Of a DNA stretch of 18,696 nt, positions 1 to 15,293 are shown one piece after another (position 1 is the stretch's first letter; each line of letters begins with the position of its first letter). The stretch lies in contig CAYTXX010000019.1 of NCBI GenBank assembly GCA_964442165.1, forward strand, positions 1 to 18,696. The letters are read 5' to 3'. The notes beneath the pieces were generated by a model that saw only the letters and a list, made by a program, of their open reading frames with translations, was not told the DNA's origin and ran no database searches. Made by a program: the position numbers and the translations under genes. This DNA is from an uncultured Desulfurococcaceae archaeon. GTDB lineage: Archaea > Thermoproteota > Thermoprotei_A > Sulfolobales > NBVN01.

Positions 1-216
1 GGTAGGCACTTCATCAACGTCATTAAGGAGAGGTGTAAGGAGTGCGGTCTCTGCATATTTGTCTGCCCTACTAAGGTACTCGATAGGGGTATTGAGAGGA
101 ATAGCCGTGGTTACAGGTACGTTATCCCGGCTAGACCCGAGAGGTGTATCGGCTGTAGGATGTGTGAGTACACGTGCCCCGACTTCGCTATATTTATTGA
201 GGTGGGTGGGGGGTGA
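1..216 (+). CDS. korD: 2-oxoacid:ferredoxin oxidoreductase delta subunit (2x[4Fe-4S] ferredoxin-like), 5'-truncated by window edge
   Basis: Frame-1 ORF is open from base 1 to TGA 214-216. The translation contains CKECGLCIFVCP and CIGCRMCEYTCP, two CxxCxxCxxxCP cluster motifs. Its stop overlaps the GTG of the next gene (GTGA). It is the first gene of a delta-alpha-beta-gamma cluster. Confidence 0.75.
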   Translation, partial: GRHFINVIKERCKECGLCIFVCPTKVLDRGIERNSRGYRYVIPARPERCIGCRMCEYTCPDFAIFIEVGGG

Positions 217-1337
217 GGGTAGACTACATAACCGGTAATACAGCTATAGCTCTAGGCTCCATAGCTGCCGGCCTTAAGTTCTACGCCGGCTACCCGATAA
301 CTCCTACCTCCGACATATTCGAGCTACTAGCTAGGGAGCTACCGAAGAGGGGCGGCTACGTGATCCAGTTCGAGGACGAGTTAGCCTCCATAAACGCTGC
401 TATAGGTGCTTCGTGGGCCTGCGCTAAGTCTATGACAGCTACCAGCGGGCCCGGCTTCTCCCTAATGGTTGAGGCCCTAAGCCTAGCCGTGATAACCGAG
501 ACGCCGGTAGTGGTAGCCTACGTAATGAGGACCGGCCCCTCGACGGGTGTCCCAACGAGGTCTGGCCAGTACGACGTCCTGCAGGCTACCTACGGGTTCC
601 ACGGTGGGTTGGTGATACCTGTACTAGCTCCCGCCACTCCTCAGGAGGCCTTCGACCTAACGGTTAAGGCCTTCAACGTCTCCGAGAAGCTTAGGACCCC
701 GGTGATAGTGCTATCAGACGCCGTTATAGCCCATACCTACGGTAAGGTCGTCGTTAGGGAGCCTGGTGAGGTCGAGGTAGTTGAGAGAGCTAAGCCTACA
801 GCACCCCCAGAGAAGTACAGGCCCTACGACCCCGGCGATGGGCTTGTCCCACCTATGGCCTGCTTTGGTGAGGGGTACAGCGTACTGGTCGAGTCCCTAA
901 CCCACGATGAGAGGGGGTACTACGCCCCCAGGTCCGACGTCCAGCGCAGGCTTATGTGGAGGCTGTACAGGAAGATAGCTGAGAGCGCCTCGGAGCTATT
1001 CGACTACAGCGCGGCCTACCTAGACGGATGCGACGTAGCCCTAGTCTCCTACGGCTCTACCTCGCTCTCAGCTCTAGTAGCCACCAAGATCCTGAGAAGC
1101 GAGGGCTACAGAGCCTGCTGCATTAGGTTGAGGACCCTCTTCCCCATATACGAGGAGGGAATTAGGAAGCTACTCGAGGGGGTTGGGAAGGTGTTCGTGG
1201 TGGAGAACAACATCGGGCTCTACTACAGGGAGCTACGCGGGGTCCTAAGGGGTAGCGAGGTGGTCAGCGTACCCATAATAGACCTAGACCTACCCCAGCC
1301 TAGGGAGGTAGTCGAGGTGGTGAAGCAGTGGCTGTAG
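213..1337 (+). CDS. korA: 2-oxoacid (probably 2-oxoglutarate):ferredoxin oxidoreductase alpha subunit
   Basis: 374 aa. Carries N-terminal GNTAIALGSIAAG, GYPITPTS and FEDELASINAAIGAS motifs typical of OFOR alpha subunits. Size matches KorA/OorA-type alpha. SD-like GAGGTGG at 199-205. Confidence 0.9.
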   Translation: MRVDYITGNTAIALGSIAAGLKFYAGYPITPTSDIFELLARELPKRGGYVIQFEDELASINAAIGASWACAKSMTATSGPGFSLMVEALSLAVITETPVVVAYVMRTGPSTGVPTRSGQYDVLQATYGFHGGLVIPVLAPATPQEAFDLTVKAFNVSEKLRTPVIVLSDAVIAHTYGKVVVREPGEVEVVERAKPTAPPEKYRPYDPGDGLVPPMACFGEGYSVLVESLTHDERGYYAPRSDVQRRLMWRLYRKIAESASELFDYSAAYLDGCDVALVSYGSTSLSALVATKILRSEGYRACCIRLRTLFPIYEEGIRKLLEGVGKVFVVENNIGLYYRELRGVLRGSEVVSVPIIDLDLPQPREVVEVVKQWL

Positions 1338-2170
1338 CGCACCCACTAGATAGGTACCTTAGGACCGACAGGATACCTACGATGTGGTGCCCGGGCTGCG
1401 GGCTCGGGATCCTACTGGGATGCGTACTGAGAGCTGTAGATAGGAGGATTAGGGAGGGTAGCCTAAGGAGGGAGAACGTAGGCTTCGTCGGAGGTATAGG
1501 GTGTTCAGCTAGGATGACCCTCTACCCATACTTCGACTCAGCCCACGTAATCCACGGTAGGGCCATACCCTTCGCGCTGGGGGTTAAGGTGGTGAAGCCC
1601 GAGATGAAGATGGTCGTGGTTGGAGGGGATGGGGATATAGCTGCCATAGGCGGTAACCACATACTTCACGCGATTAGGAGGAACGCCGACCTCCTGGTGA
1701 TCATGGCTAACAACATGATCTACGGCATGACCGGTGGCCAGCAGGCACCTACAACCCCTAGAGGTCTCTACACGACTACCACACCCTACGGTAACCCAGA
1801 GAGGGAGATCAATATGGTTAGGCTAGCTGCAGCTCTAGGAGCTAACTACATCGCTCGGGGATCCGTGACCCATCCACCCCTACTTGAGCAGATGATCTAC
1901 AAGGCCCTAGGTAAGAGGGGCCTAGCCTTCGTTGAGGTACTCTCAACCTGTCCAGAGCTCTTCGGTAGGCACATAGGGTTTAGAAACCCTGTAGACCTCT
2001 ACAACGAGCTTAGGAAGAGGGTGGTAGTGAAGGTAAGGCCCTCTGTAGATGAGAGCGACTACAGCTGGGAGAGGGGCTTCGTAGTCGGGGAGTTCGTGGA
2101 TAGGGATGAGCCAGGCTTTATCGAGATATTATATGAGTATACATCGAAGGCTAGGGGTGGTGTAGGTTGA
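1328..2170 (+). CDS. korB: 2-oxoacid:ferredoxin oxidoreductase beta subunit (TPP-binding)
   Basis: 280 aa. Has WCPGCG near the N-terminus and the TPP motif VVGGDGDIAAIGGNH...NNMIYGMTGGQ. Overlaps korA by 10 bp. SD-like GAGGTGGTGA at 1313-1322. Confidence 0.9.
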   Translation: MAVAHPLDRYLRTDRIPTMWCPGCGLGILLGCVLRAVDRRIREGSLRRENVGFVGGIGCSARMTLYPYFDSAHVIHGRAIPFALGVKVVKPEMKMVVVGGDGDIAAIGGNHILHAIRRNADLLVIMANNMIYGMTGGQQAPTTPRGLYTTTTPYGNPEREINMVRLAAALGANYIARGSVTHPPLLEQMIYKALGKRGLAFVEVLSTCPELFGRHIGFRNPVDLYNELRKRVVVKVRPSVDESDYSWERGFVVGEFVDRDEPGFIEILYEYTSKARGGVG

Positions 2171-2697
2171 GGATCGAGGTACTCATAGCCGGTAGGGGAG
2201 GGCAGGGTATACTGCTACTAGGACACATACTTGGGAAGGCTATGGCTAAGTACACCAACCTCTACATACTAGGTAGCGAGACCTACGCGGCAGAGACTAG
2301 GGGAGGGGACTCAAGGGTAGACCTAGTCGTAGCCGATAGAGAGGAGGAGGCAGACTTCATCAAGGTGATGGGCGCTGATATAGCCTTAGTAATGCACCAA
2401 GCCCAGCTTGACGCCTACAGCCACCTAATTAAGGACGGAGCTCTGGTGTTCCTAGACGGATCTAACGTTACCAGCATACCCTCAAGGAACTGGAGGGTCT
2501 TCCTAGAGCCGTACACCGATATAGCAGAGAGGGAGTTCGGTACACCTAGGGTTGCTAACATAGTTGCCCTAGGGCACTTAGTGAAGCAGACGTCCCTAGT
2601 CCCTCCAGAGGGTGTTGAGGAGGTAATAAGGGAGACAGTACCTAGGGACTGGGTCGACGTAAACATAAGGGCCTTTAGGTACTTCCTAAGTAGGTAG
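2167..2697 (+). CDS. korC: 2-oxoacid:ferredoxin oxidoreductase gamma subunit
   Basis: 176 aa. N-terminal IAGRGGQG motif of OFOR gamma subunits. TTGA stop/start overlap with korB. Confidence 0.9.
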   Translation: MRIEVLIAGRGGQGILLLGHILGKAMAKYTNLYILGSETYAAETRGGDSRVDLVVADREEEADFIKVMGADIALVMHQAQLDAYSHLIKDGALVFLDGSNVTSIPSRNWRVFLEPYTDIAEREFGTPRVANIVALGHLVKQTSLVPPEGVEEVIRETVPRDWVDVNIRAFRYFLSR

Positions 2698-2724
2698 GGG
2701 GCTAGGTCCTAGAGCTCTACACAG

Positions 2725-2733
2725 TTTTAATAA
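2725..2733 (+). promoter_or_regulatory. TATA-like box (TTTTAATAA) upstream of the thioredoxin-like gene; the T-rich context may also terminate the kor operon
   Basis: This is the only A/T-rich block in the 127-bp gap after korC. It is followed about 30 bp later by an open frame encoding a signal-peptide-like segment. Confidence 0.35.
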
Positions 2734-2824
2734 TTCTTTAACTAGTAGTTCGGGGAGGACTACGGGTAAGCTGCAGCCCTACGTACTCATAGCCCTCGCC
2801 GCTCTAGCTATATGTGCTCACACC

Positions 2825-3355
2825 GTGCTGAGCTCAGGCGAGTTCTTCCTATACCTCTTCGGAGCTACCTGGTGCCCGTACTGCAGAGCTCTAAGTGAGT
2901 TCTTCGGTAAGAGCTTCCCAGGTAACAGCTACTTCTGTAAGATAGATGAAGACCGGAGCTGTAGGGAGGCTCTTAACTTCCTTAACAGCTACCTGGAGTC
3001 TAAGGGGGTCCCCGAGAACGTAACTGGCTACATACCCCTAACCATAGTAGTAGTTGAGGGTAGGTACGTAGCTGCTATAGTAATCGGAGCTGTAACAGAT
3101 GCGGCGTTCTGGAGGGACCTAGCTAGGGCAGCACCTAGGGAGGAGATCCCCGTAATGCTAGGTAGGGATAGGGTCTACAAGGTACAGCTAACCTACGAGG
3201 AGCAGGCTCAGCTCGTATCTAACTACGTACGCCTACCCGAGGCTACCGCAACTAAGCCTGGGTTACACCAGCTAGAGCCTCAGGTTCTAGTAGCGCTAGC
3301 CCTAGTAGTAGCTGGGGTAGCTCTAGTAGCGTACTCCCTAGTAAGACGTAGGTGA
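2825..3355 (+). CDS. membrane-anchored thioredoxin/glutaredoxin-like protein (WCPYC active site); true start may lie upstream near 2762-2771
   Basis: 176 aa from GTG 2825. FFLYLFGATWCPYC matches a thioredoxin-fold beta1-CxxC motif. The C-terminal segment VLVALALVVAGVALVAYSLVRRR is a TM anchor. The in-frame upstream sequence encodes a hydrophobic signal-like segment with no NTG codon. Confidence 0.7.
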   Translation: MLSSGEFFLYLFGATWCPYCRALSEFFGKSFPGNSYFCKIDEDRSCREALNFLNSYLESKGVPENVTGYIPLTIVVVEGRYVAAIVIGAVTDAAFWRDLARAAPREEIPVMLGRDRVYKVQLTYEEQAQLVSNYVRLPEATATKPGLHQLEPQVLVALALVVAGVALVAYSLVRRR

Positions 3356-3362
3356 TTTCTAC

Positions 3363-4505
3363 GTGGCTTCGGTAAGAGCCCTCTACACCTTAGCTGTCCT
3401 CCTGCTCGTACTCGTACCTACTACATACCTATACAGCTCCTCAGGGGTTCCCGTACTCTACAGAGGGGTGGAGGTAGGCTGTGCTGAGGGGTTAGAGGAC
3501 TACGTAGCTAGGTTAACTACTGTCGTAGGAAACTACACCACCTACTTCTTCGGGATTACGGGGTGCCCTGACTGTGCTGAGATGGAGAGGTATCTCAGTA
3601 ACCTCTCCACAGACAGTCCAGCCTACATTGACGTATCCATAAGTAGGGATATATTCGGAGAGCTACTGAAGACTCTTTCCAGCTACGTAGATGAGGGGTA
3701 CCTTAAAGAGGTACCGGTAGTTCTAGTAGTATGCGGTAGTAGACCTGTAGTGGTCTCAATAGGTGTTTATAGGAACGATACCTTCTGGAGGTTTACCCTA
3801 GGCTGTAGCTACACCTTAACCTGCACGCCAACGCTTAGGAAGCCACCTAACCTTCTAGGGCTAGTAGCATCAGCTGTAGTTCTAGGCCTCGCCTCATCCC
3901 TTAGCCCGTGCGTCCTATACCTATACATAGCCCTACTACTATCCTACACGGCCTCAGGGCTAGGAGGCTCCACCTGGAGGCTCCTAACCTTCGTAGCAGG
4001 CCTGGGCTTAGGCTACTTAGCCGTAGTGCTAGGGCTTTCTGGAGCTATGGCCTACCTAAGGCACCTTAGCTGGGCGCTACTCATAGCCTTCGGCGTGTTC
4101 ATGGTACTCCACTCGAGGGGGGCTATCGGCTGCCCGGTTGGTGGTAAAGCCTGCAGAGAGCTCCCGGTACCCGGTGTTAGCTCCATAATCGGGTTCGGCG
4201 GGGTACTCCCCCTAGTGCTAGGGCTAGTAGCTTCCCTAGGCGCGGTCCCCTGTAGCTCCGGCTACTACGTAGTGCTCTACACGGCATCAGGAGGGTATGT
4301 AACCACTACCCTACTAGCAGCTTACATACTTTCGTTCCTCTCCCCCTACTTAGCGCTCTCCATAGCCTCTAGAAAGCTCCTCAACCTCCTAGAGGGGGTA
4401 GCCCGTAGGGTAGCTATCGTAGAGGCCGCTGCGGGTATAGCTATGGTAGCCCTCGGGGTTTACCAAGCTCTAAGCACGTGGTTACTTTCAGCTACTAGGC
4501 CTTAG
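3363..4505 (+). CDS. thioredoxin-like domain fused to CcdA/DsbD-type thiol:disulfide electron-transfer membrane domain
   Basis: 380 aa. Has an N-terminal signal-anchor (LYTLAVLLLVLVPTTYLY), then a Trx-like domain with FFGITGCPDC, then about 6 TM helices. The TM region carries the two CcdA/DsbD-type Pro-Cys motifs (SLSPCVLYLY and GAVPCSSGYY). Lies 7 bp after the previous gene, with an AGGTGAT SD-like box at 3350-3356. Confidence 0.7.
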   Translation: MASVRALYTLAVLLLVLVPTTYLYSSSGVPVLYRGVEVGCAEGLEDYVARLTTVVGNYTTYFFGITGCPDCAEMERYLSNLSTDSPAYIDVSISRDIFGELLKTLSSYVDEGYLKEVPVVLVVCGSRPVVVSIGVYRNDTFWRFTLGCSYTLTCTPTLRKPPNLLGLVASAVVLGLASSLSPCVLYLYIALLLSYTASGLGGSTWRLLTFVAGLGLGYLAVVLGLSGAMAYLRHLSWALLIAFGVFMVLHSRGAIGCPVGGKACRELPVPGVSSIIGFGGVLPLVLGLVASLGAVPCSSGYYVVLYTASGGYVTTTLLAAYILSFLSPYLALSIASRKLLNLLEGVARRVAIVEAAAGIAMVALGVYQALSTWLLSATRP

Positions 4506-4598
4506 CTACCGGCACCCGCATACTCCGCACTAGAAGTATCTCCGTTACCTAGGTTAGCTGAAGGTAAGCTACGGGATTCATACTCTACGTATGTAATC

Positions 4599-4605
4599 TT
4601 ATAAG
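4599..4605 (+). promoter_or_regulatory. TATA-like box (TTATAAG)
   Basis: Lies about 35 bp upstream of TTG 4638. The same 9-mer TTATAAGCT recurs at 6113-6121 upstream of the HTH gene. Confidence 0.35.
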
Positions 4606-4637
4606 CTCAGTTACCCGGAGAGCTCTGTGAAAGTATC

Positions 4638-5108
4638 TTGAGGAGGTTAGTACACGTACTCGCGTCTACGGCTACGGCTACGTGGACCTCTAGGCTGGTA
4701 GTACAGCTAGGCAGCACTGAGGTCCTTGGAGTAGCTTACGTTACGTCCCTATGCGTTAACTGGATCTTGGACTACCTAGGTCATAGCGGTGGTAGGAGGT
4801 CCCCGCTAACCCACGAACCTCTCAACGCCTCAGCTATATCCTTCATCGCAGCTCTAGCTCTAAGCACGCTTTACCTCTACAACCTAGAGCTAGCCCTAGT
4901 TACCCTACTAGCCTCAGGGGTTAGCTTCGTAACCCACCTACTCCTAGACCTACTAAGCGGTGGGATCTACGTAAGAGACGGCTGTAGCTATAGAAGGGTG
5001 TACCTACTGAAGCTCAGGGAACCCCTCTACTCAGCTGCTAATAGCGCTACCCTAGCGCTCTCCATAGCTGCTATAGCTCTCCACCTGCTTAACCCCTACC
5101 TCCGGTAG
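4638..5108 (+). CDS. small polytopic membrane protein, DUF457/YdjM-like putative membrane-bound metal-dependent hydrolase
   Basis: 156 aa with 4-5 hydrophobic helices. His/Asp pattern LDYLGHSGGRRSPLTHE and THLLLDLLSGGIYV resembles the H...R..THS and sHllLD..t.G motifs of the family. Assignment is by motif memory only. Confidence 0.45.
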   Translation: MRRLVHVLASTATATWTSRLVVQLGSTEVLGVAYVTSLCVNWILDYLGHSGGRRSPLTHEPLNASAISFIAALALSTLYLYNLELALVTLLASGVSFVTHLLLDLLSGGIYVRDGCSYRRVYLLKLREPLYSAANSATLALSIAAIALHLLNPYLR

Positions 5109-5164
5109 CGGTACCAGCTCTACGGTATATTACGGCTTGGAGCAGATCGCAGTGGAGCTGAGGC

Positions 5165-5989
5165 GTGTGCTGGGGTGTACTGGGGAAGCTAATTAGCGTA
5201 AGCGGTTTAGAGGCCGAGGTCGAGGTTGGGGGGGCCGTTATCAAGGCTCTCGTAGCTATTGAGGGGCTTAGCCCGGGTGATATAGTCCTAGTCCACGCCG
5301 GTGTAGTGCTAGAGAAGGTAGATAGGGAGGACGTGCTGAGGAACCTCTCAGTATACTACGACCTAATGAAGTACCACTACGTATTCAACGGAGTACCCGA
5401 GGAGGAGGCGGCTTCAAGAGCTAGGGAGGACCTAGCTAAGCTAGCTACAGAGCTTGGGGTACCTATCGACGATGTACTTAAGTCCATCCAGGACGCCGGT
5501 GAGCCCTCGGGAGGAGGTGGCGGGGTTATGCCCCTGGAGGTACCTGAGAGGGCCTTCTCCGTGGAGTACGCTGTTCAGCTAGCTGAGACGGACTACCTCC
5601 AGGTTATGCACTACACTAACTACATGAGGATATGCGAGAGGGCCTTCATGGCCCTCCTAAGGGAGGTTGGCCTAAGCTACACGAGGCTAATCCACGAGTA
5701 CGGGGTCTTCATACCTACTGTAGAGGTAAACGCTAAAATCAGGTCCCCAGCTAGGATGGACAACACTCTGAGGGTGTACGTATGGGTGGAGGAGATAGGG
5801 AGGAAGCATATCAAGTACAGGTGCGTAGTAGAGAACAAGGCTACCGGTAGCGTATCCGCCGACGTAGTTCACGTAGCTGTATGCACAGATACCGCTATAA
5901 CCTCGAGCCACGAGATACCGGAGGACCTTAGGTCAGCCCTCAGCAAGTACCTTGTAACCCCCGGGCAGGATACGGCTTATAAGTACTGA
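5165..5989 (+). CDS. HypC/HupF-like N-terminal domain fused to 4HBT/YbgC-type hotdog acyl-CoA thioesterase
   Basis: 274 aa, one open frame. Has N-terminal MCWGVLGK...GDIVLVHAGVVLEKVDREDV (HypC pattern), a Gly5 linker, and C-terminal AETDYLQVMHYTNYMRICERAF...RVYVWVEEIGRKHIKYRC (4HBT pattern). GTG start is followed by Cys. Confidence 0.75.
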   Translation: MCWGVLGKLISVSGLEAEVEVGGAVIKALVAIEGLSPGDIVLVHAGVVLEKVDREDVLRNLSVYYDLMKYHYVFNGVPEEEAASRAREDLAKLATELGVPIDDVLKSIQDAGEPSGGGGGVMPLEVPERAFSVEYAVQLAETDYLQVMHYTNYMRICERAFMALLREVGLSYTRLIHEYGVFIPTVEVNAKIRSPARMDNTLRVYVWVEEIGRKHIKYRCVVENKATGSVSADVVHVAVCTDTAITSSHEIPEDLRSALSKYLVTPGQDTAYKY

Positions 5990-6002
5990 TAAGGAGATCG
6001 TA

Positions 6003-6062
6003 GGGGATGATGACTCCGCCGAGGATGATCTGTGATTCCAAGGACTCGAGCACTGACATCCA
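6003..6062 (+). ncRNA. candidate archaeal C/D box sRNA (2'-O-methylation guide)
   Basis: C box ATGATGA at 6007-6013 and D box CTGA at 6053-6056 are separated by 39 nt, the canonical archaeal spacing. Degenerate internal boxes: D' ATGA at 6025-6028 and C' GTGATTC at 6032-6038. These leave guides of 11 nt and 14 nt. Sits 17 nt after the stop of the upstream CDS and is followed by a 5-bp GC hairpin (6067-6083). Confidence 0.45.
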
Positions 6063-6112
6063 ACCCCCGCGGTGACCTCGCGGTAGGGTAGGTTTGACTT
6101 CTGTGAATAGCG

Positions 6113-6119
6113 TTATAAG
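6113..6119 (+). promoter_or_regulatory. TATA-like box (TTATAAG) for the HTH regulator gene
   Basis: A/T box in an otherwise GC-rich spacer. The predicted TSS near 6140-6147 lies just before the in-frame TAG (6152-6154) that opens the HTH reading frame. Confidence 0.35.
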
Positions 6120-6250
6120 CTTAACTACCGTGGCTTTGATCTGGGTGTAACTAGCTGATATCAAGGTACGTAATCGATGAGGTTAAGAGGAGGATAGCCG
6201 GGGACGTAGTCTACAGCGACGACTCGGGGCAGGCTATTAGGAAGTGGAGG

Positions 6251-6880
6251 ATGGTCTTCGGGCTTAGCCAGGTTGAGCTAGCTAAGTACCTAGGCGTAGC
6301 CTCCAGCGTCATAAGCGACTACGAGAAGAACAGGCGAAGACCTGGGATGAAGTTCCTGAGGGCCTTCATAGATTCCCTACTTAAGTACGACGAGCTATCC
6401 GGGTACTCCGTAACTAAGAGGTTAGCGCAGAGTATGGGGGTAGTAGCTACCGGGGTTATAGATGTAGTGGAGTTCAGTAGGCCTGTAAGCCTAGATGAGC
6501 TTGTGAACGCTGTTGAGGGCTACATAGTTAACTCGAGGTTCGTGACCCTACCCATATACGGCTACACCGTACTCGATAGCTACGAGGCTATTGAGGGCTT
6601 GAGGGGGAACGAGTTCTGGAGCATAATGGGGCTCTCCAGTATTAGGGCCCTCATATTCACGAGGGTGAGTACCGGTAGGTCGCCTATGGTAGCTGTCCGC
6701 GTAGCTCCAACAAAGCCTGCTGCCGTGGTCGTTCACTACCCTAAGGTAGTGGATACCCTAGCTATAAGGCTAGCCGATAGGGAGATGATACCGCTAATAG
6801 TCTCCACCCACCCAACAGTCGACAGCTTGGTTAGGTCCCTGAGGGAGAAGCTGGTATCGAGAGCTAAGGTAGCTCGCTAG
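6251..6880 (+). CDS. XRE-family helix-turn-helix transcriptional regulator with uncharacterised C-terminal domain; N-terminus probably extends upstream to about 6155
   Basis: GLSQVELAKYLGVASSVISDYEKNRRRPG is a classic XRE HTH (helices 2-3). The helix-1-like sequence GQAIRKWR is encoded in-frame upstream of ATG 6251. Confidence 0.8.
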   Translation: MVFGLSQVELAKYLGVASSVISDYEKNRRRPGMKFLRAFIDSLLKYDELSGYSVTKRLAQSMGVVATGVIDVVEFSRPVSLDELVNAVEGYIVNSRFVTLPIYGYTVLDSYEAIEGLRGNEFWSIMGLSSIRALIFTRVSTGRSPMVAVRVAPTKPAAVVVHYPKVVDTLAIRLADREMIPLIVSTHPTVDSLVRSLREKLVSRAKVAR

Positions 6881-6882
6881 AC

Positions 6883-7251
6883 CTACCTAGAGGACCTCCT
6901 CTCCTGCAGTATCATTATAGCTCTAGCTACGTCCCCACCCGCTTCAGTTATAGCTTGGATAGCCTCCTCTCTAGATGCACCAGTCTGCTCGACAACGAAC
7001 TCTACGTCCTCCTCCGCTACAGCTGGCTTAGGAGCCCCCCTAGGCTCCCTCCTTATCCTCTCTAAGCCTGAGCATACTACCTGCACGACCTTCTGCTGAC
7101 CTAGGTTAAGGATAGCTACCTGAGGGTCCCTGATCACTATATCGAAATCCTCCGCGGATATCGTAACCTCCTTAACCCCCTGAAGCTCCTCAACCTCCAC
7201 ACCGTACCTCTTCAGCATCCTCTTCAGCTCCCTAAGGTTAACCGGGAGCAT
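6883..7251 (-). CDS. nac: nascent polypeptide-associated complex protein (archaeal NAC: NAC domain + UBA domain)
   Basis: 122 aa. LKRMLKRYGVEVEEL...IVIRDPQVAILNLGQQKVVQV is the NAC domain. EEDVEFVVEQTGASREEAIQAITEAGGDVARAIMIL is the C-terminal UBA domain. ATG start. Confidence 0.9.
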   Translation of the reverse strand: MLPVNLRELKRMLKRYGVEVEELQGVKEVTISAEDFDIVIRDPQVAILNLGQQKVVQVVCSGLERIRREPRGAPKPAVAEEDVEFVVEQTGASREEAIQAITEAGGDVARAIMILQERRSSR

Positions 7252-7264
7252 CTAGGGCACCTAA

Positions 7265-7290
7265 GCTTAATACTTCGAGGAGCTAATAAG
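7265..7290. promoter_or_regulatory. compact divergent promoter region (two A/T boxes, CTTAATAC and CTAATAAG) in a 40-bp spacer
   Basis: Only 40 bp separate the nac start (7251, minus) from GTG 7292 (plus). The A/T boxes lie about 24 bp and about 34 bp from the respective starts, implying leaderless or near-leaderless mRNAs. Confidence 0.3.
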
Positions 7291-7291
7291 G

Positions 7292-8569
7292 GTGAGGATA
7301 GAGGTGCCTAAGCTAGAGATAAGGGTACTAGGCGGAGGTCTTGAGGTAGGTAGGGCAGCTATAGCTGTTAGTAGTAGAGGTAGAACGGTTCTCCTAGACT
7401 ACGGGGTGAACTTCTCCGAGAGCGACGTCCCCCAGCTCCCGGAGCACATAAGGCCCTCCGAGGTATCTCTAGTTGCTGTAACACACGCACACCTAGACCA
7501 TGTAGGGGCGGTCCCCCTGCTCTACACATCTAAAGCCCAGCCGGTACTGGCTATGAATAGGCTTACGAAGGCCTTCTCCGAGGTCCTACTGAAGGACTTC
7601 ATGAGGATCTCCGGATACTACCTACCGTTCGACGAAGCAGACTGGTACAGAGCTGTAGAGTTCGTTAGGTACGTTGAGACCGGGGAGGAGGTGGAGATCG
7701 AGGGGGTAGCCCTGAAGACCTTCAACGCCGGCCACATACCCGGTAGCCAGGCCTACCTCCTAGACCTAGGGGACTTCAGAGTAGCGTATACAGGAGATGT
7801 TAACACCATAGACACTAGGCTAGTTAGGGGCTACGATAGCTACGGGCTTAAGGCCGACGTACTGGTGATCGAGGGTACCTACGCTGACGTAGATCACCCA
7901 GATAGGGAGGAGGTGGAGAGAGAGTTCGTAGAGGCTGTTAGGGAGGTTATAGAGTCCGGTGGGAACGTCCTCGTACCATCATTCAGCTTAGGTAGGGCCC
8001 AGGAGATACTCTCCCTCCTCTACGAGAGGTTTAGCGGAGGTATGGTGTACTACGACGGCATGGTGAGGGCTGTAAACAGCATTCTAGTGAGCTACCCGGA
8101 GTACGTTAACCGCTACGAGCTACTGGTAAGGGCTCTAAAGGAGTTTGAAGAAGTCAAGTCAGCTGGGCAGAGGCGTAAGGTAGCTAAGTCAGAGGGGGTT
8201 GTCGTAGTAGCATCAGCAGGGATGCTCAAGGGCGGACCCGCCCTCTACTACCTAAAGAGGTTCTACGATAACCCAAGGAACGCTGTCTTCCTAGTATCCT
8301 ACCAAGCCCCGGCAACTCCAGGTAGGAGGCTATTGGAGCAGGGAGCTCTAGACGACATAGGCCCAGTTAGAGCTAGAGTTGAGTGGTTCGACTTCTCGAG
8401 CCATACGGGGTTCAGCGGGCTCCTAAAGGTTATCAAGTCCTTCCAAGGTCTGGAGGCCGTGGTTATAATACATACGAGTGAAGCCGCCTACAGCCTAGCT
8501 AAAGCTCTAGAGGAGTCCTACCAAGTCTACGTACCTAGGGTTGGTGAGGTAGTGGAGTTCTTTAGGTAG
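7292..8569 (+). CDS. metallo-beta-lactamase/beta-CASP family ribonuclease (short aCPSF2-like form, no KH domains)
   Basis: 425 aa. Has the HxHxDH motif VTHAHLDHVGAVP, downstream GH and D/H motifs (NAGHIPGS, TGD), and a beta-CASP-like insert followed by C-terminal SSHTG. Confidence 0.85.
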   Translation: MRIEVPKLEIRVLGGGLEVGRAAIAVSSRGRTVLLDYGVNFSESDVPQLPEHIRPSEVSLVAVTHAHLDHVGAVPLLYTSKAQPVLAMNRLTKAFSEVLLKDFMRISGYYLPFDEADWYRAVEFVRYVETGEEVEIEGVALKTFNAGHIPGSQAYLLDLGDFRVAYTGDVNTIDTRLVRGYDSYGLKADVLVIEGTYADVDHPDREEVEREFVEAVREVIESGGNVLVPSFSLGRAQEILSLLYERFSGGMVYYDGMVRAVNSILVSYPEYVNRYELLVRALKEFEEVKSAGQRRKVAKSEGVVVVASAGMLKGGPALYYLKRFYDNPRNAVFLVSYQAPATPGRRLLEQGALDDIGPVRARVEWFDFSSHTGFSGLLKVIKSFQGLEAVVIIHTSEAAYSLAKALEESYQVYVPRVGEVVEFFR

Positions 8570-10010
8570 GCTTACACTTGGCTTCCCTAACCCTCTTCCT
8601 ATAGCCTAGAACCCCTCCTCTGAGGCTGTAGGCCTGCACCCCTGACTTCCTAAGCTCTAGCGCTACTAGTAGACTGGCTGAGCCGTAGTCGCAGTAGAGT
8701 ACTACGGGGACGTCGACCTTGCTCAGCTGAGATATGTGGATAGCTCCGGGTAGGTGGTCCTCGGAATACCTACGGAAGTCCCTGATGTCCGCTAAGAGCC
8801 ATCCTGGAGGTACATCATCCACCTCTACGTCAGCCCCAATACCCTTCAGCACCTCCTCAGCTGTAGCCTTACCTACTTCGTAGACCCTGTAGCTAGCTAT
8901 AACCCCGTTAAGGACGTCCCCACTTACGTACTTAAGGGCCTCCTCAACCTCCTCAACCTCAGCCCCAGTCTCTACCGGGCCCTCCGAGATCCTGCAGACC
9001 TCCTCAACCTTAACGACGTAGTCAAATAGCTCGAGCTCCCTCACCCTGGAGACTATCTCTTCCTTATCCGCAGCTGCTAGAGGCCTTAGCAGTGCGGCCC
9101 TAGGCCTTACCAGGTAGTCGACTACCCGTAGGTTCTTCAGGGTCTGCGAGGATGCCTGACCAACGGACTCACCGGTAACTACCGCGTCGTACCCTAGCTT
9201 CTCAGCTAGTGCCTGAGCTACCTCGTGCATTAGTACTCTCAGGACTACCTGCCTAAGCCTACTCTCAACCTTAGACCTAACCTCAGCTAGTAGCGGTACG
9301 AAGTTAACCACTATAAGCCTAGGCTCGTAGGGGGTGAATAGCTTAGCTACCTCCTTAGCTACGGCGATAGCCCCCTCAGTAGCCCCCGCAACCCCCATGT
9401 AGAGGTGGAGGAAGTCTACCTCAGCACCCCTCTTAGCGGCTAGGATCGAGGCCAGAGTGGAGTCGAAGCCTCCGGAGAATAGGGTTAGGGCCCTACCCTC
9501 AGTCCCCACCGGGAGCCCTCCCATACCCCTCCAGCACCTCATTACGTAGTAGGCGTATTCCCCCCTAACCTCGATCCTAACCTCGACCTCTGGGTTATCG
9601 AGGTCTACACCAGCTGAGTACTTCAGTAGTGAAGCCCCTACAGCCCTAGCTACGTCTAGCGAAGTAAAGCTGTGGTCCCCGGATCTCTTAACCCTTACAG
9701 CGAACTTCCTGCCTGCTACGGCATCCTTAAACAGCTCCTCAGCCCTCCTCGAGATATCCTCTAGGGAGCTGAATCTGTACGGAACCACCTCGCAGAAGTC
9801 GTGGACTCCGAAGACCTTGCTAAGCACCTTCGATACATCCCTATCAGCCTCAACGTAGAAGACCCCCTGGGAATACCTAACCCTAAAGCTAGCTCCAGCT
9901 TTAGCTAGAGCCTTCTCCAGAGCTCTAGCTAGTGCCCTCTCAAACCTAGGCCTAGTCCTCCAGGACTTAAGCGGTATCTCCGCTGACTCCTTAACTAGGT
10001 AGTACCTCAA
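8562..10010 (-). CDS. thiI: tRNA 4-thiouridine synthase ThiI (THUMP + PP-loop ATPase + C-terminal rhodanese domain)
   Basis: 482 aa. PP-loop LFSGGFDS. The N-terminal region is THUMP-like. The C-terminal VVLYCDYGSASLLVALELRKSG is a rhodanese active-site loop with Cys. TTG start. The 3' end overlaps the convergent RNase gene by 8 bp. Confidence 0.9.
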   Translation of the reverse strand: MRYYLVKESAEIPLKSWRTRPRFERALARALEKALAKAGASFRVRYSQGVFYVEADRDVSKVLSKVFGVHDFCEVVPYRFSSLEDISRRAEELFKDAVAGRKFAVRVKRSGDHSFTSLDVARAVGASLLKYSAGVDLDNPEVEVRIEVRGEYAYYVMRCWRGMGGLPVGTEGRALTLFSGGFDSTLASILAAKRGAEVDFLHLYMGVAGATEGAIAVAKEVAKLFTPYEPRLIVVNFVPLLAEVRSKVESRLRQVVLRVLMHEVAQALAEKLGYDAVVTGESVGQASSQTLKNLRVVDYLVRPRAALLRPLAAADKEEIVSRVRELELFDYVVKVEEVCRISEGPVETGAEVEEVEEALKYVSGDVLNGVIASYRVYEVGKATAEEVLKGIGADVEVDDVPPGWLLADIRDFRRYSEDHLPGAIHISQLSKVDVPVVLYCDYGSASLLVALELRKSGVQAYSLRGGVLGYRKRVREAKCKPT

Positions 10011-10039
10011 CTTACACCACTAGGTACTTTCCTATGGAG

Positions 10040-10060
10040 CTTAAGAGAAAAACTCTTGAG
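10040..10060 (-). terminator. oligo-T tract within an imperfect hairpin downstream of the pyrophosphatase gene
   Basis: The minus strand reads CTCAAGAG TTTTT CTCTTAAG, starting a few nt after the TAG stop (10063-10065). It forms a 7/8-bp stem. A T5 run is the usual archaeal termination signal. Confidence 0.35.
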
Positions 10061-10062
10061 TA

Positions 10063-12120
10063 CTAGGCTAGAGCTACGAGGAGCGGGGCTAAGGAGAGGG
10101 ATACCACGCTCATTAGCTTTATTAGTATGTTTAGCGAAGGCCCTGCAGCATCCTTCAGAGGATCCCCTACCGTATCCCCTATTACAGCTGCCTTATGCGC
10201 TTCACTACCCTTACCACCGAAGTGGCCTTCCTCTATATACTTCTTAGCGTTGTCCCACGTATTACCTACGTTACCCTGGAAGAGGCCTAGGAGTAGTCCC
10301 GAGACTATAGCTCCTGCTAGGGTACCTGCTAGTGCGTAGATACCTAGAGCTACCCCAATTACTATAGGTACTACGATAGCTATGAGGCCAGGAGTTAGGA
10401 GCCTCTTTATAGCGTACCTGGTAACTACGTCAACAGCTCTACCGTAATCAGGCCTCTCCTTAAACTCCAGTATCCCGGGCCTCTCCCTGAACTGCCTCCT
10501 TATCTCAGCTATTAGCTCGAAAGCTGAGTCGCTAACTGCTCTAAGCACTATGGAGGTAAAGAGGGCTGGAACGGCCATGCCTATGAAGAACCCAGCTACT
10601 ACGTATGGGTTGAGTAGGTTTAGCTGGCTCATGTCTACCCTATCCCTAGGTAGTACGCTGATGTAGGCAGCTAGTAGGGCTAAAGCTGTAAGAGCCGCTG
10701 AGCCTATCGCGTAGCCCTTGGATATGGACTTCATGGTGTTACCAGCTGAGTCTAGGAGGTCGGCTACGGACCTAACCTCCCTCCCGAAGCCTGCCTGCTC
10801 AGCTATACCTGCTGCATTATCCGTTATAGGGCCGTAGGCATCTGCTCCAACTACAAAGCCTGTTAGGGATAGCATGCCGACAGCTGCTAGAGATACCCCG
10901 TAGATACCGTGCCAGAAGCCACCTAGGGGTGCCATGAGGGCGTAGGATAGTATAGCAGCTACAGCTATCCCGACCGAGGGTATGACGATGCTCATGAAGC
11001 CGTAGGACATCCCCGATAGTATCGTTAGCGCTGGGCCCATCTGGGACATCTCAGCTACCTTGACGGTTGGCGGTAGCCCCTTCCTGGTGAAGTAGTCGCT
11101 TGTAAGCCCTACAACAACCCCTGCAACTAGTCCGGCAACTACCGTAGCCCAAGCCCTTAGGCCGGCCTCGGAGCCTAGTAGGTAGAGGGAGGCTGGGAGG
11201 CTTATGGCCGCTATTAGAGCTGCTGAAGCTAGGCTAGCTGTAGTTAGAGCCTTAGCTGGGTCCCTAACTGGTAAGACCATGGTGGAGAGTACCGAGGCCG
11301 CTGAAGCTACCAGACCCGCTGCAGAGACTACTAGTGGGAGTAGAGCGTACTGAGTCCAAGTAGCTACCGCTAGAGCTAGGGCTATCACCATGGTCGATAT
11401 TATAGCCTCTACGTAGGACTCGAAGAGGTCCGCCCCCATACCCGCTACATCCCCTACGTTATCCCCTACGTTGTCCGCTATCACAGCAGGGTTCCTCGGG
11501 TCGTCCTCAGGGATACCTACCTCAACCTTACCTACTAGGTCGGCCCCTACATCAGCAGCCTTAGTGTATATCCCACCGCCGACCCTAGCGAAGAGAGCTA
11601 CAGCAGATGCTCCGAAGGCGTAGAAGACGAGGTCCCTAATGGCATCCCCTGAGAACCCGAAGGCTATAAGTGCTACAGCTACAGCGAAGGTACCGAGCCC
11701 AGCTACCGTAAGCCCCATCACCAGGCCTCCTTTAAAGGCGACTCTGAAAGCCTCCCTAAGACCCCTCGTTGCCGCTGCGTTTACGGTTCTAACGTTAGCT
11801 CTAGTCGCTACAGACATACCGAAGTACCCGGTAGCCATGGACGAGAAAGACCCTGCTAGGAACAGGAGCGGTGCTCTCCAAGGTGATGGCCTCCCCGATA
11901 CTAGGTTCGCCAGTAGTACAGCTACTGCTATAGCTACGGAGATCCAGGTGATAACCCCGTACTGCCTCCTTAGGTAGGCCCTAGCACCTTCGTTTATGAA
12001 CTCGTGGAGCTCTAGAGCTCTACCACTACCCGGGGGGTATCTGAGGACTGAGAAGGCTAGGTAGGCTGCGAAAGCCAGCACCGTAGCACCGACTACGACG
12101 CTTAGTACTAGGGGTAGCAC
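10063..12120 (-). CDS. hppA: membrane-bound proton-translocating inorganic pyrophosphatase (K+-independent-type signature)
   Basis: 685 aa, about 15 TM helices. Hallmark motifs [41 protein letters not shown] and [26 protein letters not shown] start. Confidence 0.95.
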
Positions 12121-12154
12121 GCTTAACCCTTTTTCCAGTACTCGTAATCTCCGC

Positions 12155-12162
12155 TTATAAAC
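12155..12162 (-). promoter_or_regulatory. TATA-like box (minus strand GTTTATAA) for hppA
   Basis: A/T box about 35-40 bp upstream of GTG 12118-12120 on the minus strand. Confidence 0.35.
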
Positions 12163-12294
12163 GTTCTATTGATGCGCACTTAAATAACCTAAGTGACCCC
12201 GAAAGCTAGCCGTAGAGCCTGGAAAGCTGGGGGTACGGATGAAGCTAGAACTCTCACCAAGGTTTAACCGTACTAGCAGAAGATACCGTACCGG

Positions 12295-12888
12295 TTGGGT
12301 AGCACTTCAGTCTATGGGCTACTTATTAGCTGGTTTCACCATGGGTTGGGGGGCTACTTGAAGTTCCTACTTAGGGACTGGGTATACCTTTTACACCCTA
12401 GACCTGCTTACGCTATCTGCTCCTACTCTGACGGCATCTACGATTGCTTAGCTGCTTCTTGGGTTACCCCTGTATCTAGGGAGCCCCCGATCCTGATGGC
12501 TTCCCTAGCCCCTAAGAGGGAGACCTACAAGATCCTCAGGTCGTCGGGTAGGGCTACGGTTAACGTCCTACCGTGGGAGAAGCTAGAGGTACTGCACTAC
12601 TTAGGTACTACGAGCCTAGCTACGAACCCTGGTAAGATGTCCTACCCGAAGGTGAGGGCTGTAGTTAGGGATGGCTATGTGTGGCTGGAGGACGCGCTAG
12701 CTGTACTCTTCTGCAGGCTTAGGACCTCGGTAGAGATGGGGGACCACGACGCGGTGTTCTTAGACGTAGTGGGGGTAGACTTCGGCGAGTGCTTCAGCCC
12801 TAGACCTAGGGCTTCGAGCTGTAGGTACATACTCCACGTAGGGGGGAACGAGTACACTACAAACTTGAGTGAAGTGGTAAGGCTTTGA
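12295..12888 (+). CDS. flavin reductase-like FMN-binding split-barrel domain protein; more likely start is TTG 12358
   Basis: Family pattern is present: LLHPRPAYAI...CLAASWVTPVSREPPILMASL...GRATVNVL...GDHDAVFLDVVGV. The first about 20 residues of the longest ORF have no counterpart in this pattern. The in-frame TTG at 12358 is preceded by GGTTGGGGGG (12344-12353). Confidence 0.75.
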   Translation: MGSTSVYGLLISWFHHGLGGYLKFLLRDWVYLLHPRPAYAICSYSDGIYDCLAASWVTPVSREPPILMASLAPKRETYKILRSSGRATVNVLPWEKLEVLHYLGTTSLATNPGKMSYPKVRAVVRDGYVWLEDALAVLFCRLRTSVEMGDHDAVFLDVVGVDFGECFSPRPRASSCRYILHVGGNEYTTNLSEVVRL

Positions 12889-13454
12889 ACTCCCGGGTTC
12901 TCGCCTACGTAGCTCTAGGGCTTGGGGTACTAGCTCTAACGAGCTTCCTCCTCATACCCCTCTCAGCGGTTCTGGAAGTAGCCTTCGGTACCGTAGCTAC
13001 TGCAGCCCTCTTCCGGAGCTCTAAGGTAGCTACTGCAGCGTCCATAGCGGTAGCTACCTTAGGGGTAGTCAGCCTCGATCTAGCCTTTGAGGCCTCTACC
13101 CTCAGTAGCCCCTACCACCTAGCCCTAGCTACACTCCTAAACTTCGTAGCTCTACTAGCTACCTACATTATCTGTAGGGTAGCTATTACTAGAGGGGGTT
13201 TCGGGGCCCTGAGAGCTCTCCTAGTACTACTAACCTCGTCTCTAGCTATAGCCCTAGTACACCCCAGCTCCGTAGGGAGGTTGGCGGAGTTGATGAAGCT
13301 TAGGGGCCCCCTAGAGGTAGTAGCCTACGGGAGCTTAATGGTATTCGGAACCTCACTACCCTACTCAGCTGCTATAGTACTCCTCCTAGTCTACTTCCTC
13401 TACGATACCCTCTCAAGCGTTAGAGTTGAGGAAGCTACTCAAGCTCCTCAGTAG
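12885..13454 (+). CDS. hypothetical polytopic membrane protein (about 5-6 TM)
   Basis: 189 aa, Ala/Leu-rich hydrophobic segments. TTGA stop/start overlap with the upstream gene. No family recognised. Confidence 0.5.
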   Translation: MNSRVLAYVALGLGVLALTSFLLIPLSAVLEVAFGTVATAALFRSSKVATAASIAVATLGVVSLDLAFEASTLSSPYHLALATLLNFVALLATYIICRVAITRGGFGALRALLVLLTSSLAIALVHPSSVGRLAELMKLRGPLEVVAYGSLMVFGTSLPYSAAIVLLLVYFLYDTLSSVRVEEATQAPQ

Positions 13455-15209
13455 CTCCTCTAGGTCGGTGAAGACCCTATCGTATGTGAAGCCCATCAGC
13501 TCCCTAAGCTCCCTCTTCAGATACCTCCTATCGGCTAGTACTACGTAGGCCCTATCCTCCTCAGACCTTATAGCCCTCCCAATAGCTTGGGACGCTCTAA
13601 TAGCTGCCAGCATATCCGTAGTAACTACCTTAGCTAGACTACCTAGCTCCCCCTCTAGCGAGTCCCTTAGGTCCTCTAGGTAGTCGTCAGGTTGGGGGTA
13701 CGGGACCCCGCAGACTACGACCGTGTCTACCATGGACCTACCGCTAGAGTCCCTAAACTCCACCCCCTCAACTATCTTACCCCCTGCTACGGCATTTACC
13801 AGAGTGTGTGGCTCCCTAGTTAAAGCCCCCTCCACCTCCGATATCCTACTCCTACCGCTCTCTACGTATACGTCGTGTATGTCGCTGAGGTACACCACCA
13901 CCTCCCTCATGACCTCGTAGCTGGGGTACACCGCTAGTACAGCCCTCCCACACCTACGGTAGACCTCTCTAACCAGCCTCGCGTAGTCCATGAACATCCT
14001 CGTCGACCTATACGCGTAGCTGGTGGTAAGCTTCGAGTACACAGCGTAGAACACTCTCTCCCTAGGGAAGACCCTACCATACGCCTCCTCAACATCTAGG
14101 TACCTACTCCCAGCTGAGATAACCCTATCGAGGATGGGCTTCGGGGGTAGGGTCCCGGACATGAGTAGTACACCTCTAGCCTGCCTTAACCTCCTCCTAA
14201 TGGGTTCGTAGCTAACCGGGAGGGCGTGTAGCTCAGCTGAGTCGTATGTAGCTTGCGTATAGACCCTGGTGAAGTCCTCAAGAGCTAAGCTGTAGAACTT
14301 CACCAGCTTACTTAATGGGGAGGTAAGCCTCAACAAGTACTCCGCACCTAGCCCAGCTAGCGCCTCTAGGGAGGCCAGCCTCATCTCGTAGAGAGCTTCC
14401 TCCAGAGCCCTACCGATATCCGGGGTAACCCCCACATCCTCTTTACGTACCCTCACCAGCCTATCACCAGTAACCCTCGATAGTGCCTCCTCTAAAGGCC
14501 TTAAGCTCTCGGAGAGCTCTACGTAGCCAACCTCGGATAGCTCCCTACGAGACTCCCTGACGTGGGTAAGGTCTACGGAGCCTGAGATAACGGACTGGGG
14601 GTTTAGGAGGGTGTGGGCCTCGTCTATAACTAGGTAGAACTCATCTAGCCCTACATCCTGGAATGCTGTTGAGTAGACTACGTCGTCGAAGACGTATGGG
14701 TAGGTTACGACTGCTACGTCTACCCTACTAGCTAGACCGGCTAGGCTGAAGAAGGGGCATACCGATAGCTCCCTAGCAATAGCTTCAGCTAGCTTATGGG
14801 GGTCCGTTAGGGTCGATCCGGCTAGGACCTCCCCTACCTCCTGCAGTGAGGTGCTCCTCAGGTTGGCGTAGTAGGGGCACATACCTTTAAGCCTTAGAAG
14901 TCTGCAGTTCAGCCAGAAGTCCTCAGCCTCTACATCAGCTCCCCTAAGCACCGGGCACATCCTCCTACCGCTAAAGACCACGGTAAAGGATGCGCCAACC
15001 CGCCTAGCCTCGCGGACTACGGGGGCCATCTCATTCCTCGTCCTCACAGCGTAGAGGACTCTACCCCTACCTAGGTGGGAGAGTACTGCTACTAGGGTCT
15101 TACCGTAGCCTGTAGGGGCCTTAAAGGCTATGAGGCCACCTAGGTTGGACTTAATGAACTCTACAGACTCCCTCTGCCCCCTCCTAAACGATGGGTAGGG
15201 AGAAGGCAT
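13413..15209 (-). CDS. xpd: XPD/Rad3-family superfamily-2 DNA helicase with FeS-cluster domain
   Basis: 598 aa. Walker A APTGYGKT, DEAH box VIDEAHTL, and four Cys between them (RRMCPVL, LNCRLL, GMCPYY, SVCPFF) as in the XPD 4Fe-4S domain. C-terminal helicase motifs GKIVEGVEF and AIGRAIRSEEDRAYVVLAD. ATG start with an A/T box about 23 bp upstream. Confidence 0.85.
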   Translation of the reverse strand: MPSPYPSFRRGQRESVEFIKSNLGGLIAFKAPTGYGKTLVAVLSHLGRGRVLYAVRTRNEMAPVVREARRVGASFTVVFSGRRMCPVLRGADVEAEDFWLNCRLLRLKGMCPYYANLRSTSLQEVGEVLAGSTLTDPHKLAEAIARELSVCPFFSLAGLASRVDVAVVTYPYVFDDVVYSTAFQDVGLDEFYLVIDEAHTLLNPQSVISGSVDLTHVRESRRELSEVGYVELSESLRPLEEALSRVTGDRLVRVRKEDVGVTPDIGRALEEALYEMRLASLEALAGLGAEYLLRLTSPLSKLVKFYSLALEDFTRVYTQATYDSAELHALPVSYEPIRRRLRQARGVLLMSGTLPPKPILDRVISAGSRYLDVEEAYGRVFPRERVFYAVYSKLTTSYAYRSTRMFMDYARLVREVYRRCGRAVLAVYPSYEVMREVVVYLSDIHDVYVESGRSRISEVEGALTREPHTLVNAVAGGKIVEGVEFRDSSGRSMVDTVVVCGVPYPQPDDYLEDLRDSLEGELGSLAKVVTTDMLAAIRASQAIGRAIRSEEDRAYVVLADRRYLKRELRELMGFTYDRVFTDLEELLRSLSSFLNSNA

Positions 15210-15286
15210 CAGACAGCCACCGCCTCAGCATTAAAGCTAAGTAGTGGTCGAGTCGCTCATCACCGTAGTACTAGGCCTACTGAAGC

Positions 15287-15293
15287 TAAAAAA
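15287..15293 (+). promoter_or_regulatory. TATA-like box (TAAAAAA) upstream of hypA
   Basis: Centre lies about 27 bp before GTG 15318, which is leaderless-type geometry. Confidence 0.35.

Follow-up and report, generated by a model that had tools for sequence, protein, structure and literature searches.

A HypC-like chaperone carrying a hotdog thioesterase-type domain in uncultured archaea

What would a chaperone of hydrogenase maturation gain from bearing a thioesterase-like domain on the same polypeptide? This question is raised by a gene on an 18,696-nucleotide stretch of DNA, hereafter the window, from an uncultured Desulfurococcaceae archaeon of the Sulfolobales (GenBank assembly GCA_964442165.1, contig CAYTXX010000019.1). 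At positions 5165-5989 of the forward strand, a single uninterrupted frame of 274 codons followed by a stop encodes a HypC domain joined to a hotdog domain of the 4HBT/YbgC type. The best overall explanation is that this fusion is a functional HypC to which a thioester-binding or thioester-processing hotdog module has been tethered, with a probability of roughly 0.6.

Two domains in one reading frame

The original prediction, made from the letters of the window, had read the gene as one in-frame open reading frame (ORF) for a HypC-like chaperone and a 4HBT/YbgC-type hotdog domain. Profile searches against Pfam agreed with it, both domains being recovered at scores over the gathering cutoffs. 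HupF_HypC (PF01455) matched residues 1-62 with 46.6 bits (cutoff 28.5, E=3.7e-12), 4HBT_2 (PF13279) matched residues 137-259 with 50.7 bits (cutoff 25.5, E=3e-13) and 4HBT (PF03061) matched residues 146-227 with 41.5 bits (cutoff 20.6). Taken together with a structure model and Foldseek comparisons, these matches delimit a HypC oligonucleotide/oligosaccharide-binding (OB) fold at residues 1-53 (5165-5323), a helical module at residues 54-111 (5324-5497) over which no Pfam match was found, a variable disordered linker at residues 112-126 (5498-5542) that includes the glycine run G116-G120 with V121 and M122, and the hotdog domain at residues 127-262 (5543-5950), inside which lies the family-specific loop Y144-L145-Q146. 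His44 in an LVHAG motif (5294-5296), Asp143 in an ETD motif (5591-5593) and a leucine in place of the usual proline at position 6 were all present as described. Leu6 is found in the window and in the entire Sulfolobales clade and Pro6 in most family members from Hadarchaeota and Nitrososphaerota; Pro6 is common in HypC and no absolute requirement of the family.

The Met-Cys N-terminus that had been proposed was borne out, while the start codon proved to be GTG instead of ATG. As an in-frame TGA lies one codon upstream (5159-5161), Met-Cys (GTG-TGC, 5165-5170, Cys2 being encoded at 5168-5170) is the sole possible N-terminus of the fusion, which begins with Met-Cys-Trp-Gly-Val. The start codon and the Cys codon are kept in the window and in 23 of the 24 family loci checked. 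The exception is locus L004 from a metagenome-assembled genome (MAG) of the Desulfurococcales, where ACG precedes the Cys codon (9998-10000) and not ATG, GTG or TTG as in all other loci, and where gene callers begin the protein (P0012) at Val5. This may reflect a sequencing error, a non-canonical start or a lost function of Cys2.

The possibility that the fusion was produced by an assembly or frameshift artefact was rejected, since both domains lie in one frame, with no stop or frameshift between them, in 28 of 28 complete loci from independent assemblies, the window and 27 others. No database record of the window's own protein was found.

A full-length model of the fusion was obtained with AlphaFold from 36 family members, with a mean predicted local distance difference test score (pLDDT) of 83. 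It comprises an OB-fold (residues 5-52) of five beta strands with a pLDDT of about 90, three helices (residues 54-74, 79-97 and 101-111), a disordered linker (residues 112-122, pLDDT below 50) and a hotdog domain (residues 131-262, pLDDT mostly 80-97); a separate model of residues 1-114 had a pLDDT of 87. For the N-terminal half, the significant Foldseek matches were all HypC structures, such as HypC of T. kodakarensis (2z1c, target TM-score 0.81, root-mean-square deviation 1.6 A) and HypC within the HypCD and HypCDE complexes (3vys/3vyt/3vyu, target TM-score 0.86-0.88). Only about 67-72 N-terminal residues could be aligned to solved HypC structures. Helix 54-74 is the counterpart of the C-terminal helix of HypC, and helices 79-97 and 101-111 are specific to the family, with no counterpart in HypC or Pfam. 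The full-length model also matched YbgC-type acyl-CoA thioesterases (5v10, 1s5u, 5t06 and 1z54) with target TM-scores of 0.83-0.90, and the matches include E. coli YbgC solved with acyl-CoA. Structure prediction has thus recovered the HypC-like fold and the hotdog fold that had been read from the sequence.

Substitution patterns indicate that all three structured modules are under purifying selection, the window's clade included. Pairwise ratios of nonsynonymous to synonymous substitution rates (dN/dS), window-clade pairs among them, lay between 0.02 and 0.25 in the OB-fold, between 0.09 and 0.34 in the helical module and between 0.06 and 0.19 in the hotdog domain. The linker gave values of 0.2-1.3, with 0.98 between the window and locus L009, and evolves neutrally. 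Mean pairwise identity is highest in the hotdog domain (62%, versus 53% in HypC and 16% in the linker). Cys2, His44 and, in the helical module, N60, G76, A82 and G98 are invariant in the family, His44 being found in LVHAG in 36 of 36 sequences; by the Pfam alignment it is the equivalent of E. coli HypC His51.

Asp143 of the hotdog domain is shared by all fusions and by 114 of 114 generic relatives, and it is aligned with the second Asp of the DTD motif of 5v10. Its counterparts ahead of the central helix are Asp17 in Pseudomonas 4HBT and Asp18 in E. coli YbgC. It is followed by Y-L-Q where A-[MA]-G is usual, and about 20 further hotdog positions are invariant in the fusion family only, among them H149, T151, C157, H177, T185, N200, W207, E209, E210, K214, H215 and N224. 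Five of the family-specific invariants (Y144, L145, Q146, H149 and T151) cluster around the catalytic Asp and where the central helix has its N-terminus.

A rare family that takes the place of hypC

The architecture had been suspected to be new; it is rare and conserved and, it appears, undescribed. Among 5.8 billion clusters searched, 42 at 90% identity were retrieved, 255-282 amino acids long and 38-100% identical, and the HypC and hotdog domains are both present in all of them. At source they are named either 'HypC/HybG/HupF family chaperone' or 'acyl-CoA thioester hydrolase', with no cluster bearing the two names together, and UniRef is listed as the source of none. When 1.84 billion protein representatives were scanned exhaustively with HMMER using the hotdog half alone, four matches were found below 1e-30, all of them fusions; they were followed by one 153-aa protein at 2.7e-26 and then by generic thioesterases near 1e-14. 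A homologue search with the HypC domain alone as the query returned no matches. In the literature, no report of a HypC fused to a thioesterase, hotdog or 4HBT domain was found, and the hits obtained for HypC together with thioesterase, hotdog, 4HBT or Hadarchaeota were unrelated (fungal hypC genes, chain-elongation genomes). Neither 'thioester' nor 'fusion' occurs in the text of a 2025 review (PMC12134894).

The gene is carried by 21 species-representative genomes, all uncultured archaeal MAGs, with host labels from the Sulfolobales/Desulfurococcales, the Nitrososphaerota/Thermoproteota, the Geoarchaeota, the Hadarchaeota and one Hodarchaeaceae. Many of the MAG sample names point to geothermal or subsurface sites, and the hosts are presumably anaerobic and thermophilic, as judged from MAG and sample names only. 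No split orthologue of the fusion was found in the cluster search, the HMMER scan or the loci. Because the fused form extends across several archaeal phyla and down to 38% identity and has no split form, its distribution marks the fusion as old and fixed, and the earlier idea of a recent fusion of two coupled genes fails.

The only free-standing relative of the fused hotdog, and the exception to this pattern, is P0045 (153 aa, L025 75-536), which is 38% identical to it. P0045 keeps DTDYL, FIP and VCTD and is without H149, C157 and H215; it is encoded on AT-rich contigs of about 1 kb beside a TENA/THI-4 gene, with stops in all frames upstream. A shorter fusion was also observed, P0044 (216 aa, L028 899-1549), which is without the two family-specific helices and keeps HypC, the hotdog and a hypD neighbour, so that the helical module is not essential to the architecture. 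Finally, the MAG of locus L017 (JASEGJ010000010.1) is labelled Candidatus Hodarchaeaceae (Asgard), yet its fusion and its hypD group with those of Hadarchaeota, which points to horizontal transfer or to a mistake in binning or naming.

The strongest evidence on function comes from gene context. Outside the window's own Sulfolobales clade, the fusion directly follows the end of hypD in 16 of 16 loci. Locus L012, for instance, is a tightly packed operon of two HdrA-like genes, MvhD, the small subunit, the large subunit, the HycI protease, HypD, the fusion, HypE and HypF. Locus L024 contains a different hydrogenase type with HycI, HypE, HypD, the fusion, an Mrp-type HypB, two HypA and HypF. In the partner HypD proteins, the canonical motifs FCGTHE, GPGCPVC, GFETT and PGHVS are present together with a four-Cys cluster, and a second HypC-like ORF was found in no locus within the 10 kb searched around the fusion. 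Given the adjacency to hypD and the absence of another HypC within this distance, the fusion occupies the canonical hypC slot. The tie to hydrogenase maturation, which had been drawn from the window only, is therefore stronger than first seen once orthologous loci are compared, and the fusion is very probably the functional HypC of its hosts.

What the hotdog domain may do on a HypC

In HypCD, the Fe(CN)2CO group is held by Cys2 of HypC and Cys41 of HypD, and the C-terminal helical part of E. coli HypC forms a mobile lid over the Cys2/cofactor pocket; HypC tagged at its C-terminus still yields HypCD bearing Fe(CN)2CO (PMC11565642). Cys2-dependent adducts were observed on E. coli HypC, one of +26 Da that was suggested to be acetyl-derived and one of +28 Da that is formyl-sized, and it was proposed by the same authors that the CO precursor may begin as an acyl group on Cys2 (PMC10847431). 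The source of CO in anaerobes is unresolved (PMC12134894).

Domain content, fold and gene context identify the gene as coding for the HypC component of the Hyp machinery, the OB-fold chaperone whose Cys2, together with HypD, holds the iron during assembly of Fe(CN)2CO. Its C-terminal helix continues into the helical module, the flexible linker and the specialised hotdog domain. In the proposed mechanism, this domain, being attached to the HypC lid, should be able to reach the Cys2/Fe site. The hotdog would be a working thioester-binding or thioester-processing module, tethered so as to act at the HypC-Cys2/HypD site, and the conserved Asp with the remodelled polar pocket points to one specific small thioester substrate. 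The odds are somewhat in favour of the hotdog having a thioester as its substrate while it works at the HypCD scaffold. In the favoured version, it would capture a small acyl-CoA, formyl or acetyl, and present or transfer the acyl group to Cys2, from where the group could feed the route to the carbonyl ligand, an anaerobic counterpart in function to the step of HypX that runs through a CoA thioester. A specific role in supplying the CO precursor is tentative and less likely than not. The full course of events, in which a formyl- or acetyl-CoA-type thioester is bound, its acyl group is passed to Cys2 or to the HypCD iron and Fe-CO is then formed, is more doubtful. The proposed link to the CO ligand fits the acetyl- and formyl-sized Cys2 adducts on E. 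coli HypC (PMC10847431).

If the hotdog is read correctly, thioester chemistry is brought by this design into the immediate vicinity of the place at which the CO ligand is attached. A single polypeptide would then combine the iron-binding Cys with a candidate thioester-handling active site and offer a tractable handle on the CO-ligand question, which is framed by the formyl-CoA route of HypX and by the unexplained Cys2 adducts of E. coli. Should acyl transfer be its true role, the fusion would expose a thioester step that organisms with a plain HypC keep hidden or carry out in trans.

Sequence, fold and gene context place the fusion in the HypC family. It shares with HypC/HybG/HupF (PF01455; 2z1c, 3vyr-3vyu) the Met-Cys N-terminus, the OB-fold with a C-terminal helix behind it, the conserved His and, outside the window's clade, a gene position directly after hypD in hypDCEF-type operons. 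However, it is about 200 residues longer owing to the two extra helices, the linker and the hotdog, it scores under the NCBIfam hypC cutoff, and in the window's clade it has Leu6 and does not cluster with hyp genes. With the YbgC/4HBT acyl-CoA thioesterases (E. coli YbgC, 1s5u/5t06; P. aeruginosa, 5v10), it has in common the fold and the Asp at the catalytic position. It differs from them in having an invariant D-Y-L-Q where the canonical loop is D-A-[MA]-G, in its family-specific polar residues (H149, C157, H177, N200, E209, E210, K214, H215 and N224) and in being known as a free-standing protein only through the distant P0045. Its hotdog also lies under the YbgC/FadM cutoff and under that of the tol-pal YbgC model (TIGR02799, 49.9 bits against 141.35), and no tol-pal genes were found in its neighbourhood in the window.

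The likeness to HypX, the aerobic CO-ligand synthase that leads from formyl-THF through formyl-CoA to CO, is one of functional analogy only: both would be accessory modules of a CoA-thioester type on the Hyp pathway in a subset of organisms, and both could bring the thioester of a C1 or acyl group close to the HypCD iron (PMC12134894). There is no homology between the two, HypX being a separate protein of aerobes made of formyltransferase-like and crotonase-like domains, for neither of which a Pfam match was found in the fusion at E<=1. A further parallel is offered by EntH/YbdB, proofreading hotdog thioesterases that likewise work for a single biosynthetic machinery and have protein-bound thioesters as substrates. 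They belong to another hotdog subclass, the PaaI-like one, and EntH is free-standing and serves siderophore synthesis.

Several observations weigh against a functional HypC with a thioester-handling hotdog. The fusion reaches 29.2 bits with the NCBIfam hypC model TIGR00074 and 51.5 bits with the YbgC/FadM model TIGR00051, under the respective cutoffs of 48 and 68.7. Most anaerobes, E. coli included, build the cofactor with a plain HypC, so that the hotdog can be no universal requirement; moreover, hotdog-fold enzymes are normally hydrolases and not acyl donors. Where 75% of generic relatives have the canonical Gly of the D-x-x-G-[VI] loop, the fusions have an invariant Gln146, and residues 144-147 (Y-L-Q-V, 5594-5605) form the only part of the hotdog with a pLDDT below 50, though they are invariant. 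Ordinary hydrolase activity is therefore not assured, and in the light of the model this loop may become ordered only with a partner subunit or a ligand. The absence of a plain hypC was established only for the 10 kb around the fusion at each locus. Lastly, no hyp gene adjoins the fusion in the window's clade, the hypA and Mrp-type hypB of the window lying about 9 kb downstream.

Other roles have been considered for the hotdog. As an editing or protective thioesterase, it would strip stray S-acyl groups from Cys2 of HypC, from cysteines of HypD or HypE or from nearby acyl-CoA. Acyl-type adducts on Cys2 do form in E. coli (PMC10847431). The fold and the catalytic Asp are of the hydrolase type, the sporadic and lineage-restricted distribution suits an accessory function, and non-enzymatic acylation would be faster in the geothermal or subsurface settings suggested by the sample names. 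The reactive N-terminal Cys would be kept free for iron, much as in proofreading by EntH/YbdB, and thioester chemistry at HypC Cys2 would still be shown to be physiologically relevant. Nevertheless, this role is unlikely, given that an S-acyl group on an N-terminal Cys quickly rearranges to a stable N-acyl amide that resists thioesterases, that the strictly invariant remodelled active-site loop suggests one substrate rather than broad scavenging, and that the hotdog is more conserved than HypC itself. A purely structural role has also been envisaged, in which dimers or tetramers of the hotdog would make HypC multivalent and match the 2:2 arrangement of HypCD on the HypE dimer. Hotdog thioesterases of this class are obligate oligomers, and two HypCD units do bind one HypE dimer (PMC12134894). 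Such a scaffold would have no need of an invariant catalytic Asp or of some 20 family-specific polar residues near the active site, and the hotdog dN/dS is the lowest of all modules, which makes this explanation improbable. It is hardly more credible that the fusion has left hydrogenase maturation in the window's clade and works there with IscS/IscU and 2-oxoacid:ferredoxin oxidoreductase (POR) in Fe-S or acyl-CoA metabolism. The Isc/POR synteny across 11 clade loci, with no hyp gene adjacent, speaks for it; against it, selection on Cys2, His44 and the OB-fold is strongly purifying in this clade, hypA and an Mrp-type hypB are likewise encoded in the window, and hyp genes are dispersed in the lineage anyway, as seen in the MAG SKW88, whose solo hypD has no adjacent hypC.

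The last alternative concerns the products of the gene. A glycine run, a Shine-Dalgarno (SD)-like box and an in-frame ATG had been noticed in the linker, and all three are present at the positions described: AGGAGGTG lies at 5512-5519 and is separated by an 8-nt spacer from ATG 5528-5530. Initiation at this ATG through AGGAGGTG would yield a free hotdog of 153 aa beside the fusion, perhaps giving mixed oligomers. The motif is a strong one, an 8-mer SD at that spacing being found at 1 of 812 internal in-frame ATGs in related clade loci. With a loose test (motif of at least 5 nt, 12.6% background) the site had seemed ordinary, an impression that the stricter 8-mer test reversed; the looser pattern GGAGGTG-N3-10-ATG also arose by chance when the window was shuffled, in 35 of 200 cases. 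GGGGGVM is kept by sequences of the window's own 90%-identity cluster, and real gene starts in hyp-linked loci use SD motifs. Apart from the window's clade, an in-frame ATG was found at the same domain boundary in seven of seven Hadarchaeota loci (L014-L020), 6-9 codons before the hotdog domain in an otherwise variable linker. It is preceded there by SD-like motifs of 5-8 nt at a spacing of 6-10 nt, for example GGAGGTGA in L018 (around 8033+339), for which the background is 7.5% at 5 nt or more and 0.2% for 8-mers. As these loci share ancestry and are not independent, their sites are suggestive only. On the other hand, the glycine run and the ATG of the window are not conserved: a 91% relative has ACG at the site and a degraded SD, an 86% relative has no start codon, the in-frame ATG is missing in L027 and L009, and the site occurs in no other locus of the Sulfolobales clade. 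In addition, the linker is neutral in its evolution, and Gly-Gly-Val and Glu-Val codons give GGAGGTG without selection. P0315, a 153-aa database entry from the window's own cluster, was considered as a natural free hotdog and rejected, its gene beginning 28 nt from a contig end, so that the entry is a truncation. On balance, two products from one gene are quite unlikely.

Neighbouring genes in the window's clade

In the loci of the Sulfolobales clade (the window, L001-L009, L022 and L027), the fusion adjoins a conserved block consisting of IscU, IscS, three unknown genes and the gamma, beta and alpha subunits of POR. In the window, this IscS/IscU and POR block extends over 213-5108. The POR block flanks the fusion in 11 of 11 clade loci, IscS/IscU are seen wherever the locus reaches far enough, and a H+-pyrophosphatase is usually nearby, mostly on the far side. 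POR produces acyl-CoA, and in E. coli the iron of Fe(CN)2CO has been reported to come from the Isc machinery (PMC10847431). The recurrence of IscSU and POR near the fusion could be coincidental synteny. Outside the clade, IscSU and POR were also observed within 10 kb of the fusion in L021 and L023 (Hadesarchaea; ~14.9-20.5 kb), and IscSU less than 2 kb from it in L028 (2226-3845).

The three ORFs between POR and the fusion (2825-3355, 3363-4505 and 4638-5108) have no confident family assignment and show only weak thioredoxin-, glutaredoxin- and DUF1286-like matches. Their order is conserved across the Sulfolobales-clade loci with 39-81% identity, except that no DUF1286-like ORF was detected in L001 and L007. 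Between this block and the fusion, a TATA-like box GTATATT (5125-5131, forward strand) is located about 35 nt upstream of the GTG as a candidate promoter. It is unchanged in the window, L027 and L009 and lies inside a conserved intergenic stretch, which suggests that the fusion gene may be transcribed from a promoter of its own. Scans of the whole window (1-18696) revealed neither tRNA genes nor matches to Rfam families at gathering thresholds.

Downstream of the fusion on the same strand, hypA for the nickel metallochaperone is found at 15318-15755 (PF01155, E=5.4e-18, with a tblastn match to the hypA of the L024 cluster). Its stop is overlapped by a gene for a Mrp/NUBPL-type P-loop ATPase, the archaeal HypB equivalent, at 15752-16507 (PF10609, E=4.3e-40). 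The pair had been placed about 9 kb from the fusion by the original prediction, and this is where it lies; the same HypA-ParA pair was found inside the hyp cluster of L024. An ATP-type archaeal HypB is mentioned in PMC12134894.

In the MAG SKW88, the fusion shares a contig of 333,766 bp with a solo hypD that lies about 115 kb from it and beside which no hypC, hypE or hypF was found. A plain hypC hidden near this hypD was looked for and not found. The lack of hyp neighbours indicates that hyp genes are generally dispersed in the window's lineage. In two MAGs of the Sulfolobales clade (L030, 10001-12292; L031, 1162-3453), a solo hypD is directly followed by a gene of the FmdA_AmdA family (formamidase/acetamidase), a neighbour that is of interest in view of the C1/formyl-precursor ideas for the CO ligand.

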